Source of the DNA: a virus
Reading direction: 5' to 3' (one strand)
Length of the DNA: 6,253 bases
IMG/VR virus record: IMGVR_UViG_3300045988_083067
Of this stretch, positions 1 to 6,253 are shown piece after piece. Made by a program: the position numbers and the translations under genes. Position 1 is the first letter of the stretch, and each line of letters starts with the position of its first letter. The notes under the pieces are model-generated. The model saw only the letters and a program-made list of their open reading frames with translations. It was not told the origin of the DNA and did no database searches.

Positions 1-55
1 CGGTAGTCACTATCACCAGACTGACTGATTTCTTTCCAACGTTGAAGAGCTTCAG
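1..55. repeat. Terminal direct repeat, copy 1 (assembly overlap of a circular contig)
   Basis: cggtagtcactatcaccagactgactgatttctttccaacgttgaagagcttcag at 1-55 is identical base for base to 6199-6253. It lies inside the VP1 reading frame, so it is a permutation artefact and not a biological repeat. Confidence 0.95.
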
Positions 56-1130
56 CTTGACGAAGAGCAAGAACGGTGAATTGAGATTTAATAGATGATA
101 AATCAAAATGAATCTTAGAACCTATAGATACAGGATTAGAAGGAGAAGCGTCAAGTGCAAAAAGGGGAACTGGAGCAGCATTAGAAGTGATAGCAGAGGC
201 AACACCGAGAGAGCTCTTGTGAGGGTCAATTCCCAAAACAACATTAGAATCTCCAAGAGAAGAAATATCCAAAACAGCAACATCTCCAAACTGAGAATTC
301 GGAAGAACACCCATCAACATATCCTTATTCCAATTACAATATTTAAGGTCAAACATTGTATCGGATTTCCAATAATTAGAAGAAGAAGTAGGAAGATCAT
401 CAACCAAAGAAGGAGTAAGACCAGAAAAGTAATCAACATTATAAGAAGAAGGATTAGATTTTTCCCACTGAGACCAACGGAAAAAATCCTGATAAATCTT
501 TTGATAAGCAAGAATAGGGAAAAGATTTATATAATTATTTTGTATATATTGCTGAGTATATCTAGAAGAAACTCCATTTACCAAAGAAGTAGACCACCAA
601 CGATTATTAGAAGAAGGAGCAGAACGCAAAAAATTACCATATCCAAGATATGATAAAAGCTTGAAGCTCAAATCAGCACGGCTAAAACCAAACATATTCT
701 TTAAAGAGTCAGTATCGCTAGGAGACCAACTACCACCATTTAAACAATACAGAGAGGTACCCAAAAGAGAAAGTTGAAGTGAAGGCAAATAAGTACCAAG
801 AGACAAACTTTGAGTCAAAGACAAAGCTTGAATTTGATTGATATCCTGCATTTGTACCAACACGGAAGGAGCGGACTTCCAGAGAAGACGCAATGGTACA
901 GCATAAAAATCAAAATACTCACGTAACCGGGTATAAGCAGAAGTTTCAACGGGCTGAGTTCGGGTAAAATACTCAACGTTAAACCGATACTTATCTCCAG
1001 GCATAGAGATGTCCCAATAGACGGGAAGAAGCTCACCAATTTTCGCAGTAAATGCATTTTTACGTCCAATATCAAATCCAGAACGATGAGGATGATTCTG
1101 AAGATTAGACATTCCGGTGTAAGAAGCCAT
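1..1130 (-). CDS. VP1: Major capsid protein VP1 (phiX174 F / gokushovirus VP1 family), N-terminal 376 codons; continues across the circular junction into 6198..5481
   Basis: The minus-strand ATG is at 1130-1128. I translated this frame by hand down to position 3 with no stop: MASYTGMSNLQNHPHRSGFDIGRKNAFTAKIGELLPVYWDISMPGDKYRFNVEYFTRTQPVETSAYTRLREYFDFYAVPLRLLWK ... FTVLALRQAEALQRWKEISQSGDSDY. The LRxAxALQ.W.E block (30-65), followed across the junction by Y.E.I..HFGV, is the signature region of Microviridae major capsid proteins. The ORF is absent from the track only because it meets no stop before the window edge. Third codon positions are T-rich, as in the other genes. Confidence 0.9.
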   Translation of the reverse strand, partial: MASYTGMSNLQNHPHRSGFDIGRKNAFTAKIGELLPVYWDISMPGDKYRFNVEYFTRTQPVETSAYTRLREYFDFYAVPLRLLWKSAPSVLVQMQDINQIQALSLTQSLSLGTYLPSLQLSLLGTSLYCLNGGSWSPSDTDSLKNMFGFSRADLSFKLLSYLGYGNFLRSAPSSNNRWWSTSLVNGVSSRYTQQYIQNNYINLFPILAYQKIYQDFFRWSQWEKSNPSSYNVDYFSGLTPSLVDDLPTSSSNYWKSDTMFDLKYCNWNKDMLMGVLPNSQFGDVAVLDISSLGDSNVVLGIDPHKSSLGVASAITSNAAPVPLFALDASPSNPVSIGSKIHFDLSSIKSQFTVLALRQAEALQRWKEISQSGDSDY

Positions 1131-1147: not shown

Positions 1148-2866
1148 TTAAACAACATCAGGCTCAGCCTGATAAAAGAAAATACCAGACAAGTCGTTGA
1201 GCCTCTTATGTTTGACCTTACCTCGACATTTCATCAATGCCACAGCAGCCAAACGACGAACAAGAGGTAGTTCATGATAAGGTTTTTCCTTATTATCAGG
1301 AGGCCTGTTATAACGAAAAGAATAGTTACGAAGTTCAAAGTCAACCAAATCCTTATCATTAGAGTCCTCCAAGGTTTGATAAAAATCCACAAGACGATTG
1401 TAATCGTAACGATTCCAAAAAGTAACTATTTTTTCAGAAATTATTCGTAAGAACCTGTCTCGACCAAGGAGTTCTCCTCCCGGAGTGCCGCTGGACCAGA
1501 AGAGTTCTGAACATCCGTCCGTTGAATAAGTTCGAGCAAATTTGGAAATTCCGAGAAAAAATCGATATACACGGGAGAGACGATGAGTAGCTTCCAAATC
1601 AACACCATCGTACAAACGACATTCAGTAAGAATGAGAACATCACTATACGGTAAATTCGCCTGAGGAGAGAGGATATTCCTACATTCATTTGATTTTCCA
1701 TAATTATCTATATAATTTAAATACTGTTTACAAAAAGACAAGATATTTTGTTTAAAAGGAGCATTTACGTTAAATGGGTCACAAGTTATATCTGCACATC
1801 CGCTACGAATGACTCGTGAGGGCGCAGTGAACGCAGAAAATAATAATTGGTAAACACTCGATGGAAGTTTACGAATAGGGTCCGAAAATCGGGGGAATAA
1901 TCGAAGGAGATACGGCCAAGTAGGCTTAATTGTGCGAAAACGTCCATTGCGCTCAACGCAGACACCATCAAGGCACTTATTGGTAACTTCGTCAATTTCG
2001 GCAATTCGTACCTTTTCAGGAAAGAGATTTGATTCTGTAAATCCAATGGAATGGAAGGATTTAGGTCGCACCACTTTTGGCATTTGAGTATAAAAGTTGG
2101 GTAAAGCGACAAAACTATTAACATACGACGCAACATACGGTGCTGCGAATCCTCGCGAGAGTGACGCATCACAACGTCCGTAAGACCAAGCCTTAGATAC
2201 ATTTTCACAAACAGTTTGCGAGAATCGTTCGGAATTGGAAAACAATAGCAAATGCCAATGCGGGCGGAAACTGGTAGGGCCGTATTCTGATACAGCGTAG
2301 TAACGTAATTTTTCATCCGGGTAATAACTTCTTAAACGTTTTAAAAACAAATCCAAGTCACGATTACAAACATAAGGAATCCTATTTGGAACATTATGAT
2401 TAATCTTTCCAAGGATAGATAAAAGCTCCTTAGGCTTCATAGGATAATAAAACTTGATTTCGGGGTCTTTAAAAGTACGCTCAACAGTAGAATTTTTCAA
2501 CTTAATAGAAGCGGAACGAGGAACGCTACGAAAACCAAACAGATAAGTGTTAGTGTCACTATCGTCCAACTCATCAATATTGGGAACGCAGGACACATCC
2601 GCGATATCATCCGTACAAGTTTCAATAACCGAAACCTCCAAAGTAGGAAGAAAGCAAGGAGCATAAGTAAGAGTAACAAAATAAATATAATGGAATTGAG
2701 CAGAATAAGTGGTAAGAAGGTTCGTCTGAACAGCAGAACGACGAAGAACACATGAAGGACAACAACCACAAGAAACAACAACGGATTCATGCGTATACTT
2801 ATTGACAACCGTACGAGGGTTCTGACAACGAGTTACCAACTTATTCTGTAATTCCTTAGTTATCAT
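1148..2866 (-). CDS. VP4: Replication initiation protein VP4 (phiX174 gene A-like HUH rolling-circle endonuclease), 572 aa
   Basis: RCR motif 1 is FVTLTY (aa 63-68, nt 2663-2680). Motif 2 is the HUH element RPHWHLLLF (HWH at nt 2252-2260). Motif 3 carries two tyrosines, YVASY (Y244/Y248, nt 2123-2137), matching the YxxxY of phiX174 protein A. There is an N-terminal Cys cluster, SCGCCPSC, as in microviral Reps. All motif coordinates were checked by back-translation. There is no Walker A motif. Confidence 0.9.
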   Translation of the reverse strand: MITKELQNKLVTRCQNPRTVVNKYTHESVVVSCGCCPSCVLRRSAVQTNLLTTYSAQFHYIYFVTLTYAPCFLPTLEVSVIETCTDDIADVSCVPNIDELDDSDTNTYLFGFRSVPRSASIKLKNSTVERTFKDPEIKFYYPMKPKELLSILGKINHNVPNRIPYVCNRDLDLFLKRLRSYYPDEKLRYYAVSEYGPTSFRPHWHLLLFSNSERFSQTVCENVSKAWSYGRCDASLSRGFAAPYVASYVNSFVALPNFYTQMPKVVRPKSFHSIGFTESNLFPEKVRIAEIDEVTNKCLDGVCVERNGRFRTIKPTWPYLLRLFPRFSDPIRKLPSSVYQLLFSAFTAPSRVIRSGCADITCDPFNVNAPFKQNILSFCKQYLNYIDNYGKSNECRNILSPQANLPYSDVLILTECRLYDGVDLEATHRLSRVYRFFLGISKFARTYSTDGCSELFWSSGTPGGELLGRDRFLRIISEKIVTFWNRYDYNRLVDFYQTLEDSNDKDLVDFELRNYSFRYNRPPDNKEKPYHELPLVRRLAAVALMKCRGKVKHKRLNDLSGIFFYQAEPDVV

Positions 2867-3171
2867 TTTCTATCAGTAAAATTAAGTTCCATATGACGAG
2901 GCTTACGATAACGAGCAAAAGAAATATGAATAAAAGTTCGATATTTTATAAGCTGGTCATAGGGAAAAGAAGAATTCTTAATTAATAAAATAAAAGCGTC
3001 AACAGAAAGGTCGACAGGTTTTAAATCAATAGCATCACCAGTTAAATGCTGAGAGGTCTTAGCGCCATTACACGCACTATTTTGTTCTTCAGTACGAAAA
3101 GCGGAAGTAACAGTAAAATGAATATTCCGATGTAGAAGCCACTCAACAAATTTCATTAACTCAGGATTCAT
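2863..3171 (-). CDS. Peptidase_M15-like (LAS-type zinc D,D- or L,D-peptidase) cell-wall hydrolase, 102 aa; candidate endolysin
   Basis: VTSAFRTEEQNSACNGAKTSQHLTGDAIDL matches the remembered Peptidase_M15_3 core S-G-Y-R-x3-H/Q-N-x3-G-G-A-x-x-S-x-H-x2-G-x-A-x-D. The H-x6-D zinc ligands are H42 and D49 (nt 3025-3048, verified). The third ligand is in TFIHIS (H82), corresponding to the family's fvHvD. No signal peptide is visible. Its TGA stop overlaps the VP4 ATG (ATGA at 2866-2863). Confidence 0.72.
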   Translation of the reverse strand: MNPELMKFVEWLLHRNIHFTVTSAFRTEEQNSACNGAKTSQHLTGDAIDLKPVDLSVDAFILLIKNSSFPYDQLIKYRTFIHISFARYRKPRHMELNFTDRK

Positions 3172-3174
3172 GAC

Positions 3175-3264
3175 TTACGAAAATATTTGAGCAATAGACG
3201 TAAGAAGACTGACAGCAGCTGCAATAACTGCAGCCCAAATTTTAGATTTAGTTTCACTTTTCAT
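3175..3264 (-). CDS. Small single-pass membrane peptide, 29 aa (MKSETKSKIWAAVIAAAVSLLTSIAQIFS); C-terminal part of the 62-aa track ORF 3175..3363
   Basis: An internal ATG lies at 3264-3262. The peptide has a charged N-terminus followed by about 20 hydrophobic residues. Third positions are T-rich like the real genes. It ends 3 nt before the peptidase ATG. The longer start at 3363 is possible, but that N-terminal half lies in the +1 frame of the better-supported ORF 3254..3427. A peptide this short cannot be proven from sequence alone. Confidence 0.35.
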   Translation of the reverse strand: MKSETKSKIWAAVIAAAVSLLTSIAQIFS

Positions 3265-3427
3265 CAGAAATTGCTTTAAAAGTTGAACATTGAGAAATAA
3301 GAAGAAGACAATCAGGACGAAGATTTGAAGCGACGAACTCAGAAATTTCATCAACGAGCACAAGAACAGTTTCGCTCTGATTAGGATTAAACTTTGATTG
3401 GATAGAACACAAGTAATACTTTTCCAT
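3254..3427 (-). CDS. Hypothetical protein, 57 aa (MEKYYLCSIQSKFNPNQSETVLVLVDEISEFVASNLRPDCLLLISQCSTFKAISDEK); not in the ORF track (below its length cutoff)
   Basis: The ATG at 3427-3425 is the first start after the non-coding region and promoter candidate. It has an AT-rich leader like the one before VP1. Third positions are strongly T-rich (about 30 of 57 by hand count), matching VP1/VP2/VP4 usage. The stop is TGA at 3256-3254. I recognise no homology. Confidence 0.45.
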   Translation of the reverse strand: MEKYYLCSIQSKFNPNQSETVLVLVDEISEFVASNLRPDCLLLISQCSTFKAISDEK

Positions 3428-3469
3428 AACTTAAAATTTTAAATTAGACATTGTTTTTTAAAGACAGTA

Positions 3470-3502
3470 CAAAGATATAGATAAAGATTTGAAAAAAACA
3501 AA
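3470..3502 (-). promoter_or_regulatory. Candidate Bacteroidetes-type promoter (-33 TTTG, 21-nt spacer, -7 TATCTTTG) driving the minus-strand gene train
   Basis: In minus sense the sequence reads TTTG (3502-3499), then 21 nt, then TATCTTTG (3477-3470), which matches the Bacteroides consensus TTTG / TAnnTTTG. It lies in the ~19% GC segment, about 43 nt upstream of the ATG at 3427. It is the only non-coding place in the genome where a promoter could sit. Confidence 0.45.
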
Positions 3503-3540
3503 TACTCATACAAACTATTAACATAAATAAACAATAAGCT

Positions 3541-3839
3541 ATGCGGGTGGCAGGCTGGTCTGTGAGTTTGCGCTATAAAGACAAGGGGAGACTGAAAGCT
3601 ATGAGGTAAATAGCTTTCCCTACGGGCAAACTCATGTAGGTTTCACCAATTTATATTTTAAGGAATATAGCAGCGACGAGAGAAAGAAGCTCTCCGGGAG
3701 ATTGCTTACGCGTTGCGAGCGTCAAGCTTAAAGGATGGCAGTACTATAGCCTTACGGCTCTGATTTCAGTCCTAACGTCCCGAAATTCAGTAGGTGTATA
3801 ACCACGCTACGCGCGGTTGCCGAAATTACTCCAAGCAGT
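3541..3839 (-). other. Hairpin-dense non-coding element (candidate complementary-strand ssDNA origin or structured RNA)
   Basis: No ORF longer than about 22 codons exists in any frame. GC is about 47% by hand count. Verified helices, in plus coordinates: 3563-3571/3626-3634 (9 bp) enclosing 3594-3601/3611-3618 (8 bp); 3687-3694/3698-3707; 3704-3711/3719-3727; 3748-3751/3756-3759; 3760-3767/3782-3790; 3800-3807/3811-3818. The fold is better in minus sense, where 3804/3814 is a G.U pair and one loop is GUAA. Confidence 0.5.
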
Positions 3840-3870
3840 AAAACCCGGCACGTATCACTACGAACCGGGT
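3840..3870 (-). terminator. Candidate intrinsic terminator 25 nt downstream of VP2
   Basis: In minus sense: ACCCGG-TT-CGTA-GTGA-TACG-TG-CCGGGT followed by TTT. That is a 6-bp GC-rich stem, a small internal loop, a 4-bp stem and a GNRA (GUGA) tetraloop, giving a 4-U run when the closing T is counted. The U tract is short, so efficiency is uncertain. Confidence 0.4.
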
Positions 3871-3895
3871 AAGAAAACGTAAAGAAGCAAGGGAA

Positions 3896-4984
3896 TTAAC
3901 GACGAGTACTGATAACCTTATGAGGCAAGAAATTGCCTATAGTATTACCAATGCTAGTACCATAATCTACCCATTTGTCAGAATCAAAATATTGGTACTT
4001 CTTCTTTTCATTTCTAGAACGGTACCAAGATTCAATATTCCTACTTCGAGCATTATCCTTGGAAAGACCAAGTCTGAATTCTTCATTATGATAAGCCGCG
4101 GAAGACTGATTAGCTGCAATATTGGCAGCAATTTGAGACTCAGCAATACCAGAAGCAACCTTATTAGAAATATTTTGACCACGAGTACGAGCAGCTGCCA
4201 AAGCTTCTTCAGCTATAGCCTTTTTAGCTTCAGCATAAGAAACGTAACCAGAAGCCATACGCTGATAATAATCTGCAGCCTTAACACTCAAGTCAAGTTG
4301 TTGTTGTTGGTCAAGATACTTATTCAAAATACCTTTAGCCTCATTATCAAGAAGCATGCCAGAACGCTGAGCACGCATGATAAGACCTGTCATCGCCAAG
4401 TTATCAGCCTCTTGTTGCTCCTTAGCATAACCAAGCTGAGCACGAGCCAATCCGGTAGATTTCAAATAATTACGAGTTTCATCAGTAAGCTTTCCCCAAT
4501 CAATATTAGAAAGAGTCTCCATTGCCTTGGCATCAGCAAGCTGTCTAGCACCTTGCAATTGAGATTTCTCAGATTGCATCAACTCGTATTGAAAAATATT
4601 ACCAATGGAAGAACCTATGCCAGAATAATCAGCCTGAAAAGGTTGCATAACGGCAGAACCAGCAGAAAAAGCAGAATCGCCAGCACCGGCAGACTGAGCA
4701 ACACCGGCAGAACCTCCATTCATCATTAAATAAGGATTTAAACCAGCCTCTTCGAGACGTTGACGTTGGGCAGAAGCAGTGTTATAAGCATTTTCCTTAT
4801 TCCACATATTTTCCTGCCAATTACGCTGCTGTATCGCCATACGTTCGTTAAACTGATTATTCATCTGATTAATTTTGTAGTTCATCCGGTTAGTCTCCTG
4901 GACATTTTGTCTATTCTGCGAATTTTGAATTACAGAAGAACCAAAGTCAAGAAGACCACCAGCGATTGAACCAAGAAGACCCAT
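3896..4984 (-). CDS. VP2: Minor capsid / DNA pilot protein VP2 (phiX174 H analogue), 362 aa
   Basis: There is a Gly-rich N-terminus (MGLLGSIAGGLLDFG) and a Q/N-rich segment. The block YNTASAQRQRLEEAGLNPYLMM (nt 4721-4786, verified) resembles the NTA.QR...AGLNP.L block of gokushovirus/alpavirus VP2. A long Ala/Gln/Glu-rich, probably helical, middle region is followed by a basic C-terminus. The start overlaps the upstream stop (TAATG at 4986-4982). Confidence 0.8.
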   Translation of the reverse strand: MGLLGSIAGGLLDFGSSVIQNSQNRQNVQETNRMNYKINQMNNQFNERMAIQQRNWQENMWNKENAYNTASAQRQRLEEAGLNPYLMMNGGSAGVAQSAGAGDSAFSAGSAVMQPFQADYSGIGSSIGNIFQYELMQSEKSQLQGARQLADAKAMETLSNIDWGKLTDETRNYLKSTGLARAQLGYAKEQQEADNLAMTGLIMRAQRSGMLLDNEAKGILNKYLDQQQQLDLSVKAADYYQRMASGYVSYAEAKKAIAEEALAAARTRGQNISNKVASGIAESQIAANIAANQSSAAYHNEEFRLGLSKDNARSRNIESWYRSRNEKKKYQYFDSDKWVDYGTSIGNTIGNFLPHKVISTRR

Positions 4985-5466
4985 TACTCAGTAGAAGCAG
5001 CATCAGCGGAAGCAGCAGCCGCTTTTTCTGCTTCTTGTTCAGCATTTTTAGCATCAATTAATTCTTGAACTTGAGATTCAAGACGCTCAGCATAAGCCGA
5101 CAAATCCTTAGACCAGGCAATAATTTCAGAGGGAGACTGAACATGACGGGAACGAACCGTTGACAAAAGGTCATCATCAGACATCGTATCCATTACTTGC
5201 TGAATCTGGGAAACAGACTGTTTACCTTGTCCAAACTTAGAAGCAACAGCAATACCGGCACGAGAAGCAAGGTCCTTGGTATGAAGAATCAAACGGATAT
5301 CAGAAGTATAACGCACAGGACGAGATTCATCAGTATCATCAACCTCTACACGAAGCTGCTCGGTAGAATCAAATTCGGGAGCAACTGCAAAAGCATCCGG
5401 CTCAATATTAGGAATAAGTCCAGAACCTTGTTCCAAACTATTCAAATCATTAAATTTTCCAATCAT
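4984..5466 (-). CDS. Acidic 160-aa protein; positional candidate for internal scaffolding protein (VP3 / phiX174 B analogue)
   Basis: It lies between VP1 and VP2 and is strongly acidic (DDTDES, MSDDD). The C-terminus is helical and charged (LESQVQELIDAKNAEQEAEKAAAASADAASTE). Third positions are T-rich. I recognise no diagnostic motif, so the function is assigned by position and composition only. Confidence 0.6.
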   Translation of the reverse strand: MIGKFNDLNSLEQGSGLIPNIEPDAFAVAPEFDSTEQLRVEVDDTDESRPVRYTSDIRLILHTKDLASRAGIAVASKFGQGKQSVSQIQQVMDTMSDDDLLSTVRSRHVQSPSEIIAWSKDLSAYAERLESQVQELIDAKNAEQEAEKAAAASADAASTE

Positions 5467-5480
5467 AAATAAAACAATTT

Positions 5481-6253
5481 TTAATAAGGAACACCATCAC
5501 GAGACAAATTACGGGCAACATGGCAACCAATATAAGAATTAATCAATAACTGATCAGTATCCCAGGTAGAATCAGCACTCACACCAAATATAGGATCAAG
5601 AACAGAGGGGTTAACCTTAAAGAACTTGTAGTTCAAAACAACTCTATTATCCTCATTAATATCACCTTCATTGTATCCAAAACCAAACCATCCGGAAAGA
5701 AGAGATTCTGTGACAGGAGAAACCCAAGACTTAAGAGTAGTAGTAAAAGCACCATTGATAACATCAAGCTTAGTTTTCCAATTAAAATAACGAGGGTTAT
5801 ACCCAGCGTTAAACAGATTGACTACAGAAGCTTTTGGAGAATTGAAAATTTGTGTCATAGGAAGAACTTCCATACCAATGTTATCAAACTCAGGAATCGG
5901 AAGAGACTCAGCATCAGTAACCAATAACTGTCCATCCTGACCGGTCAAAGTATAATCAAGAAGAGGAACAGCATGATAAATACACATAACAACACAATGC
6001 TCATTAGTGGTATATTCAAAAGTTCCATTACCAGCACCAACACCTTTACCGGCAATAACAGCAGTATCACCATCAGCAGCAAGGTTATTATTAACAACTT
6101 CACTGATATCAAGATTACGAGAAATACCACCAATATAGGTACACAAATTGGAAAGAGCTTGGGGCAAGTTCACACCAAAGTGTTTACGAATTTGTTCGCG
6201 GTAGTCACTATCACCAGACTGACTGATTTCTTTCCAACGTTGAAGAGCTTCAG
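5481..6253 (-). CDS. VP1: Major capsid protein VP1, C-terminal part (6199-6253 duplicates 1-55); joined protein is 615 aa
   Basis: Track ORF 5481-6173 is the C-terminal 230 aa. Its listed first residue is really an internal GTG (Val). The frame stays open upstream to 6253 (...RWKEISQSGDSDYREQIRKHFG-VNLPQALSNL...). The low coordinate of each codon is 0 mod 3 in both parts. The stop is TAA at 5483-5481. Confidence 0.9.
   Translation of the reverse strand, partial: EALQRWKEISQSGDSDYREQIRKHFGVNLPQALSNLCTYIGGISRNLDISEVVNNNLAADGDTAVIAGKGVGAGNGTFEYTTNEHCVVMCIYHAVPLLDYTLTGQDGQLLVTDAESLPIPEFDNIGMEVLPMTQIFNSPKASVVNLFNAGYNPRYFNWKTKLDVINGAFTTTLKSWVSPVTESLLSGWFGFGYNEGDINEDNRVVLNYKFFKVNPSVLDPIFGVSADSTWDTDQLLINSYIGCHVARNLSRDGVPY
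6199..6253. repeat. Terminal direct repeat, copy 2 (duplicate of 1-55)
   Basis: Exact 55/55 identity with 1-55. The offset of 6198 is divisible by 3, so the VP1 frame is preserved across the junction. Confidence 0.95.

Follow-up and report, generated by a model that had tools for sequence, protein, structure and literature searches.

How microviruses other than phiX174 escape from their hosts is, to our knowledge, essentially unknown, and these phages rank among the most abundant in the mammalian gut. The question is posed directly by virus record IMGVR_UViG_3300045988_083067, whose whole 6,253-nucleotide (nt) sequence, referred to here as the window, makes up an entire circular microvirus genome with every gene on the minus strand. 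In it, the gene for a 29-amino-acid single-pass membrane peptide (MKSETKSKIWAAVIAAAVSLLTSIAQIFS; 3264..3175, minus strand) directly precedes the gene for a 102-amino-acid minimal zinc peptidase of the M15_3 (LAS) type (3171..2863, minus strand), and the locus offers two clonable genes that bear on lysis. Do they form a lysis system, as an earlier note suggested when it described a two-component cassette of peptidase and holin-like partner? The analysis below indicates that the peptidase is ordinary and that the peptide is not. The peptide is encoded by the most constrained and best conserved gene of this genome, occurs with or without the enzyme, and is small enough for chemical synthesis. It may supply the membrane step of lysis, with the peptidase as an accessory.

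Four minus-strand genes are packed in the order o57, peptide, peptidase and Rep. The first of them, o57, is a conserved 57-amino-acid open reading frame (ORF; 3427..3254, minus strand), and the peptide gene starts inside its end, in an 11-nt overlap. The TAA stop of the peptide (3177..3175) is followed by a GTC spacer (3174..3172, minus strand) and then by the peptidase ATG at 3171 (TAA GTC ATG). Downstream, the peptidase is joined through an ATGA overlap (2866..2863) to the 572-amino-acid replication initiator Rep (VP4; 2866..1148, minus strand; PF23343, 1.8e-12; phrog_942, 5.6e-34). The residues, coordinates, 3-nt gap and ATGA fusion reported in the earlier note were all confirmed in the sequence.

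The 29-amino-acid ORF is a genuine gene under purifying selection, as is the peptidase. Among relatives gathered from GenBank and IMG/VR, 60 distinct loci carry the peptidase, and 58 of them preserve an intact copy of the small ORF. The other two are L007, where the ORF is disrupted, and mar63, where it is absent. Variable columns of the peptide ORF number 8, 3 and 20 at codon positions 1, 2 and 3 (24 sequences), and the other two frames vary freely. Mean pairwise dN/dS (the ratio of non-synonymous to synonymous substitution rates) is 0.095 for the peptide and 0.19 for the peptidase. The small membrane ORF is tightly coupled to the peptidase and to rep, in keeping with the tight coupling that the note had stressed. 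Identity of the peptide to the window copy averages 92.7% over 17 complete relatives, compared to 74–83% for all other proteins. Its dS of 0.29 lies far below those of the peptidase (0.84) and o57 (0.71) in the same genomes, which suggests additional nucleotide-level constraint or recent spread.

Other explanations of this conservation, and other boundaries for the gene, were considered and rejected. The codon-position pattern indicates that protein coding, not a DNA or RNA structure, explains the conservation; the predicted single-stranded DNA (ssDNA) fold of 3150–3290 is unexceptional (z = −1.76). The 62-amino-acid version of the ORF (3363..3175), which the earlier note had entertained, is an artefact: its extension varies freely and is broken by in-frame stops in four relatives (L002, L011, L020 and L024), which leaves the ATG at 3264 as the start of the gene. 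A GTG-start ORF, also of 29 amino acids (3168..3257), is the o57 frame running on beyond its stop; it has 16 translations among 24 genomes and is unselected. L007 (IMGVR_UViG_3300045988_021117, 3190–3325) is the sole close relative with a broken peptide gene. It has a stop at codon 4 and a frameshift in the peptide with an intact peptidase; a natural knockout is one possible explanation, an error of assembly another.

The peptide begins with a segment of net charge +2, followed by about 20 hydrophobic residues that run almost to the C-terminus. Its best 19-residue Kyte-Doolittle window scores 2.01 (I9–I27), and two residues remain after it. Residues A11, A12, A15, A16, S19, T22, S23, Q26 and S29 share one 140-degree arc of the helical wheel, a small/polar (Ala/Ser/Thr/Gln) face as expected for helix–helix packing. 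The gene is absent from the annotation of seven related GenBank records. In Dulem viruses 243 and 226, the annotated peptidase coding sequence (CDS) stretches upstream over the peptide ORF. In L110 and L111 (PP511322 and PP511396), the 124-amino-acid peptidase CDS (1438–1812) starts 63 nt too far upstream and crosses an unannotated peptide ORF of 28–29 amino acids in a different frame; the conserved start is the ATG at 1501. No conserved mini transmembrane (TM) gene is described in the searched passages of Roux et al. 2012 (PMC3394797) or Kirchberger et al. 2022 (PMC9239249); neither holin nor transmembrane turned up in the latter, whose authors state that they left overprinted genes out. Judging by the searchable literature and these related records, the mini-peptide gene is both undescribed and unannotated.

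The peptidase has all the marks of its family. It carries the motifs S23-x-F-R26, Q30-N31 and N35-G-A-K-x-S40-Q-H42, together with H42-x6-D49 (SQHLTGDAID) and H82 (FIHIS). The match to Pfam Peptidase_M15_3 (PF08291) has E=6e-13 and 49.3 bits versus a cut-off of 23.2, with residues 16–84 aligned to profile positions 40–108 of 108, and the endolysin family phrog_894 is matched at 2.6e-16. We aligned the window sequence with 65 diverse homologues (66 in total) out of 1.8 billion cluster representatives. S23, R26, N31, S40, H42, A47 and D49 are invariant in this alignment, and H82 is kept in at least 90% of the 66. An AlphaFold model built on the homologue alignment has a mean predicted local distance difference test (pLDDT) score of 97.1, and its top Foldseek match is 1lbu, the Streptomyces albus zinc D-Ala-D-Ala peptidase (prob 1.00, TMq 0.68). 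The next matches are LdcB, VanY, the phage endolysins LysB4, LysECD7 and Ply500, and hedgehog N-domains. The modeled structure thus has the LAS fold. There is no signal peptide, and the N-terminal helix belongs to the fold. Profile, alignment and model agree with the note's description of an M15_3/LAS enzyme that has a His-Asp-His triad and lacks a signal sequence. In sequence, the enzyme resembles the T5 L-Ala-D-Glu peptidase only weakly (E=0.5).

In length, the window enzyme differs from cellular and tailed-phage M15_3 proteins, which are typically 130–150 residues; at only 102, it is a short form that has about 45 fewer at the N-terminus. The family comprises 1,498 clusters at 90% identity, and the top matches listed lie mostly on contigs of about 6 kb or on shorter fragments. 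Such an enzyme in a microvirus is already known, as the earlier note recognized. Roux et al. 2012 (PMC3394797) report that 11 gokushovirus and alpavirus genomes encode M15_3 peptidases, propose an endolysin role for them and note five of the 11 genes adjoining an ORF labeled 'unknown'. Kirchberger et al. 2022 (PMC9239249) likewise class M15_3 peptidases among lysis-associated accessory genes. The genes of these papers and the one described here share PF08291, virus family, gut origin and the proposed endolysin role.

The abutment of peptide and peptidase recurs in a second clade. The second peptidase clade, whose peptidases are about 55% identical to that of the window, includes Dulem viruses 255, 243 and 226 and OP549867. 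It has a TM ORF of 27–29 amino acids (MKSNNIWKIIIGAVSAALGYILNSIGL and variants) directly before the peptidase. An ATG-start copy is present in 19 of 20 assessable IMG/VR loci, and in 17 of these 19 the peptide stop and the peptidase ATG are fused as ATGA. Of 58 relatives of the window, 47 have a 3-nt spacer between the two genes; in the remainder it measures −4, 9, 12, 13, 15, 16, 21, 32 or 56 nt; because its length varies, the two ORFs are not in frame throughout. In L012, L014, L015 and L016, the spacer has grown to 9–21 nt by tandem TCGTAA-like units, each of which adds a stop.

Sequence searches with the peptide lead to other microviruses, and a cellular family shows a tentative likeness. 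Pfam, PHROGs and NCBIfam hold no significant match for the window peptide, and among annotated phage records it matched microviruses alone (12 records at E<=10, nine of them below 1e-3). Relatives that have the peptide and not the peptidase carry MATTEKKNKIWSAIISAIVSLLTSLGTILVGQ and variants, here called clade 2. Similarity measured with hidden Markov models (HMMs) forms a chain from the window clade to clade 2 (28–44 bits with the HMM of the window clade) and on to the second peptidase clade (9–15 bits). The cellular family is smalltalk (DUF6486; PF20096, NF033879), which resembles the viral peptides in its length of 29–32 amino acids, its basic N-terminus, its usual Trp and its Ala/Gly/Ser-rich TM helix. 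The best smalltalk match of any relative is that of L115, a member of clade 2, at 18.6 bits versus a cut-off of 22.7. We built a smalltalk HMM from six cellular peptides and ran it against 824 hydrophobic decoys (spurious ORFs). Second-clade microviral peptides score 10–18 bits, window-clade peptides 6–11 bits and the best decoy 8.2 bits; the second-clade and most window-clade peptides outrank 823 of the 824 decoys. These scores are suggestive of kinship between the microviral peptides and smalltalk, and compositional convergence of 28-residue helices could also produce such a likeness.

The neighborhoods of the cellular genes are informative as well. Of the 121 genomes from a single Bacteroidales family, 40 carry smalltalk, often in multiple copies. 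Its neighbors were counted by BLAST, and the counts are lower bounds. A signal-less wall hydrolase gene, Amidase_2 in seven cases and M15_3 in four, lies within 1.5 kb in 11 of 35 loci; in L234 and L236, the smalltalk gene is followed by M15_3. By these counts, a mini-TM peptide repeatedly lies beside a cytoplasmic wall hydrolase in the bacterial order presumed to include the host. Unlike the viral gene, cellular smalltalk genes usually follow an HU-HIG gene, which is missing from the virus: one is nearby in 26 of 35 loci, usually upstream where checked (L214–L248). We found no functional work on smalltalk in the searchable literature.

Several observations point to Bacteroidales as the host order. 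In a collection of one genome per bacterial and archaeal species, there was no close relative of the peptidase and no close prophage. In the same collection, the Rep profile found only distant relatives, in a Bacteroidales chromosome, a Sangeribacter contig, and Eubacteriales- and Clostridia-binned contigs of metagenome-assembled genomes (MAGs). The Eubacteriales-binned relative lies on a microvirus-sized contig of 6.7 kb and is probably mis-binned. All relatives with a recorded source are faecal. The major capsid protein (MCP) of the window is 38% identical to that of phiHBP1, the first reported cultured microvirus that infects Bacteroidota, with B. fragilis as host (PMC13064476). From the distant Rep relatives, the faecal source and the host of phiHBP1, we infer that the window's own clade infects Bacteroidales. 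The virus is related to Bacteroidales-associated microviruses and not obviously to gokushoviruses, the group mentioned in the earlier note.

We consider it about an even bet (a probability near 0.5) that the peptide acts on the membrane in lysis and that the peptidase, as an accessory endolysin, gains access to the wall only once the membrane has been opened. The block would then be a translationally packed lysis module of a Bacteroidales-type gut microvirus. In this model, the 29-residue peptide would insert in the cytoplasmic membrane, its basic N-terminus facing the cytoplasm, and, through its small/polar helix face, would self-associate or bind a membrane target, thereby providing the membrane step of lysis. 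The peptidase gene would have been inserted between the peptide gene and rep. Its product, cytoplasmic and signal-less, would cut wall peptide stems only once a membrane lesion exists and so speed or complete lysis. Membrane topology, oligomerization, permeabilization, any lytic effect and the bond cleaved are all predicted parts of this scheme. By analogy, the smalltalk mini-peptides near signal-less hydrolases in Bacteroidales lend it support. Such a module would be classed as holin/endolysin-like or as resembling single-gene lysis proteins (Sgls), with an unusually small and conserved membrane component, in an ssDNA phage.

The closest parallel on the holin side is the holin–endolysin cassette of tailed phages (T5, 2mxz; LysB4, 6akv; LysECD7, 8q2g; Ply500, 2vo9), which shares with the window a signal-less LAS peptidase encoded right after a small membrane-protein gene. 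Unlike tailed-phage holins, the partner here has 29 amino acids, one TM helix and no consistent dual start. The surroundings of an M15 homologue from a tailed phage (L251) were also inspected; its neighbor is a 144-amino-acid protein with a C-terminal TM helix, and no mini-peptide is present there.

A number of findings weigh against a lysis module of this kind. Holins usually carry a charged, hydrophilic C-terminal domain; the peptide has no such tail, and its charges are N-terminal. We know of no holin as small as 29 amino acids, and a peptide of that size may not suffice to let out a folded 12-kDa enzyme. Family similarity does not support the holin-like label of the earlier note: the peptide has no significant holin-family match in PHROGs or Pfam, the best being phrog_443 at E=0.097–0.13, and its relatives give scattered, non-significant matches to differing holin families (E=0.03–0.25). 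The window peptide also falls below every curated DUF6486/smalltalk threshold (PF20096, NF033879), with no match at E<=1. Unlike in tailed-phage cassettes, no outer-membrane (spanin-like) component is evident in the window. Finally, unlike in strict holin–endolysin pairing, each gene is found without the other. The peptide stands directly before Rep with no peptidase in seven genomes (ON840043 and six IMG/VR contigs), in which no wall hydrolase was recognizable. Conversely, mar63 and the cultured phiHBP1 have an M15 peptidase and no mini-peptide; these two and L007 keep the peptidase without an intact peptide, and the enzyme is therefore not strictly dependent on it.

Peptide and peptidase are thus not an obligate pair. 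The two-component cassette of the earlier note survives as an adjacency that recurs in two peptidase clades, and fails as a fixed unit in the seven peptide-only genomes, in the two peptidase-only viruses and in L208, where a 97-amino-acid ORF lies between a full-length M15_3 of 139 amino acids and a 29-amino-acid peptide. A Bacteroidales MAG chromosome contains a prophage in which the genes run o57-like, 31-amino-acid TM peptide, Rep. Since the peptide holds the position before Rep both in this prophage and in hydrolase-less relatives, it appears to be the core element and the peptidase an insert; at this position the peptide is the older and more widely distributed of the two. The simplest reading is that the mini membrane-peptide gene upstream of rep is an old, core trait of this virus group, and that the peptidase is an accessory gene that landed between peptide and rep in the window's clade.

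The alternative that survives best retains lysis and changes its mechanism. The peptide would be an Sgl, or amurin, like phiX174 E or LysM: its TM helix would bind and inhibit a wall-synthesis enzyme in the membrane (MraY, MurJ or the like), the cell would burst without further help, and the peptidase, acting only after rupture, could be dispensed with. Sgls and the window peptide are alike in being very small single-TM peptides of tiny ssDNA or single-stranded RNA phages, and E itself was discovered in the microvirus family. LysM of phage M, a MurJ inhibitor, has 37 amino acids, E inhibits MraY (PMC13712586; PMC10229422), and minimal active SglPP7 comprises about 34 residues, one TM helix and a short tail (PMC13712586); the peptide is close to LysM and minimal SglPP7 in size and architecture. 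The extreme conservation of the peptide suits a specific protein target more than generic hole formation, and the peptide-only relatives would lyse, on this alternative, with no recognizable muralytic gene to call on. Against it, the peptidase is under purifying selection and is kept beside the peptide in two clades, which would be odd if it could not reach the wall before rupture. Most Sgls known so far are overprinted in other genes, whereas the window peptide is a free-standing ORF, and Sgl phages have no muralytic enzyme, whereas here the peptide gene precedes a peptidase gene. The peptide has no sequence similarity to known Sgls, and no Bacteroidales target is known. We regard an Sgl as possible but doubtful.

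Somewhat harder to sustain is a role outside lysis, in which the peptide would be a conserved membrane protein such as a modulator like K of phiX174, a replication or assembly anchor, or a superinfection-exclusion factor, and the adjacency of the peptidase would be incidental to an insertion site upstream of rep. K modulates burst size. Because the constant neighbor of the peptide is Rep and not the peptidase, such a role keeps some plausibility, and the 97-amino-acid ORF that parts the two genes in L208 fits it. So does the presence of another membrane protein, of 64 amino acids, at the same position in the L089–L107 clade, as does the placement of the peptidase elsewhere in other microviruses (phiHBP1; Kirchberger 2022, PMC9239249). 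It accounts less well for an abutment that recurs in two clades with peptidases only about 55% identical, and for the enrichment of similar cellular mini-peptides beside signal-less wall hydrolases. There is also no other candidate lysis gene in these genomes. On balance, we find a non-lysis function unlikely. Last, read-through of the TAA to give one signal-anchored (signal-arrest-release-like) peptide–peptidase endolysin is very improbable and disfavored by the frame data: the 3-nt spacer does put the ORFs in frame in the window and in those 47 of 58 relatives, and a fusion of about 133 amino acids would match the size of cellular M15_3 proteins, but relatives have out-of-frame spacers of −4, 13, 16, 32 and 56 nt, others hold several in-frame stops (TAATCGTAAATT...), the ATGA overlap of the second peptidase clade breaks the frame, and cellular M15_3 proteins begin with a soluble segment and not with a TM helix.

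A lysis role for the peptide, with the peptidase as accessory, can be extended into a broader and more tentative proposal. The peptide may represent an undescribed, widespread family of ultra-small lysis proteins that is core to Bacteroidales-infecting microviruses, distantly akin to smalltalk and lethal to Bacteroides on its own, the peptidase being optional. If so, it would be the smallest known holin-like or Sgl-type effector, and the cellular modules of smalltalk and hydrolase would be related autolysis or release devices. A peptide that kills Bacteroides alone would be either a minimal hole-former or the pointer to a new 'protein antibiotic' target in Bacteroidota, and would give a first functional handle on cellular smalltalk/DUF6486. 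If the peptide is inactive, the finding shrinks to another known M15 peptidase gene.

The gene that opens the block, o57, may belong to the same story. It lies upstream of the peptide in every relative with sufficient flank, at 58–88% identity, and has a dN/dS of 0.17. Syntenic homologues of 56–73 amino acids occur in other clades and in the Bacteroidales prophage, just before the mini-peptide in all clades examined. The AlphaFold model of o57 (pLDDT 85) has a beta-beta-alpha-beta fold, for which PDB matches were uninformative. It could form part of the same module as peptide and peptidase.

The remainder of the genome encodes, on the minus strand, the MCP (1130..3, continuing 6251..5481), a scaffold-like protein of 160 amino acids (5466..4984) and the DNA pilot protein (4984..3896). 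Both ends of the window carry the same major-capsid sequence, EALQRWKEISQSGDSDY. Between the pilot gene and o57, about 470 nt (3428–3895) hold no convincing coding-strand ORF. In phiHBP1 (L249, PV598014), the gene order is Rep, a 54-amino-acid ORF, a full-length M15 of 134 amino acids, a 71-amino-acid ORF and the MCP. Its annotated 136-amino-acid CDS in the pilot–Rep interval (2326–2736) is probably spurious; it lies inside a 144-amino-acid ORF whose third codon positions have an atypical composition (T3 0.26). The 64-amino-acid membrane protein of the L089–L107 clade is ATGA-coupled to Rep (for example, L089 1796–1990) and has a single TM helix, after which come a Cys-containing 'LCISC' motif and a tail rich in Ser, Thr and Gln. 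Several of these contigs, which are microvirus or prophage, have a TPR protein of 404–420 amino acids with a signal peptide upstream.

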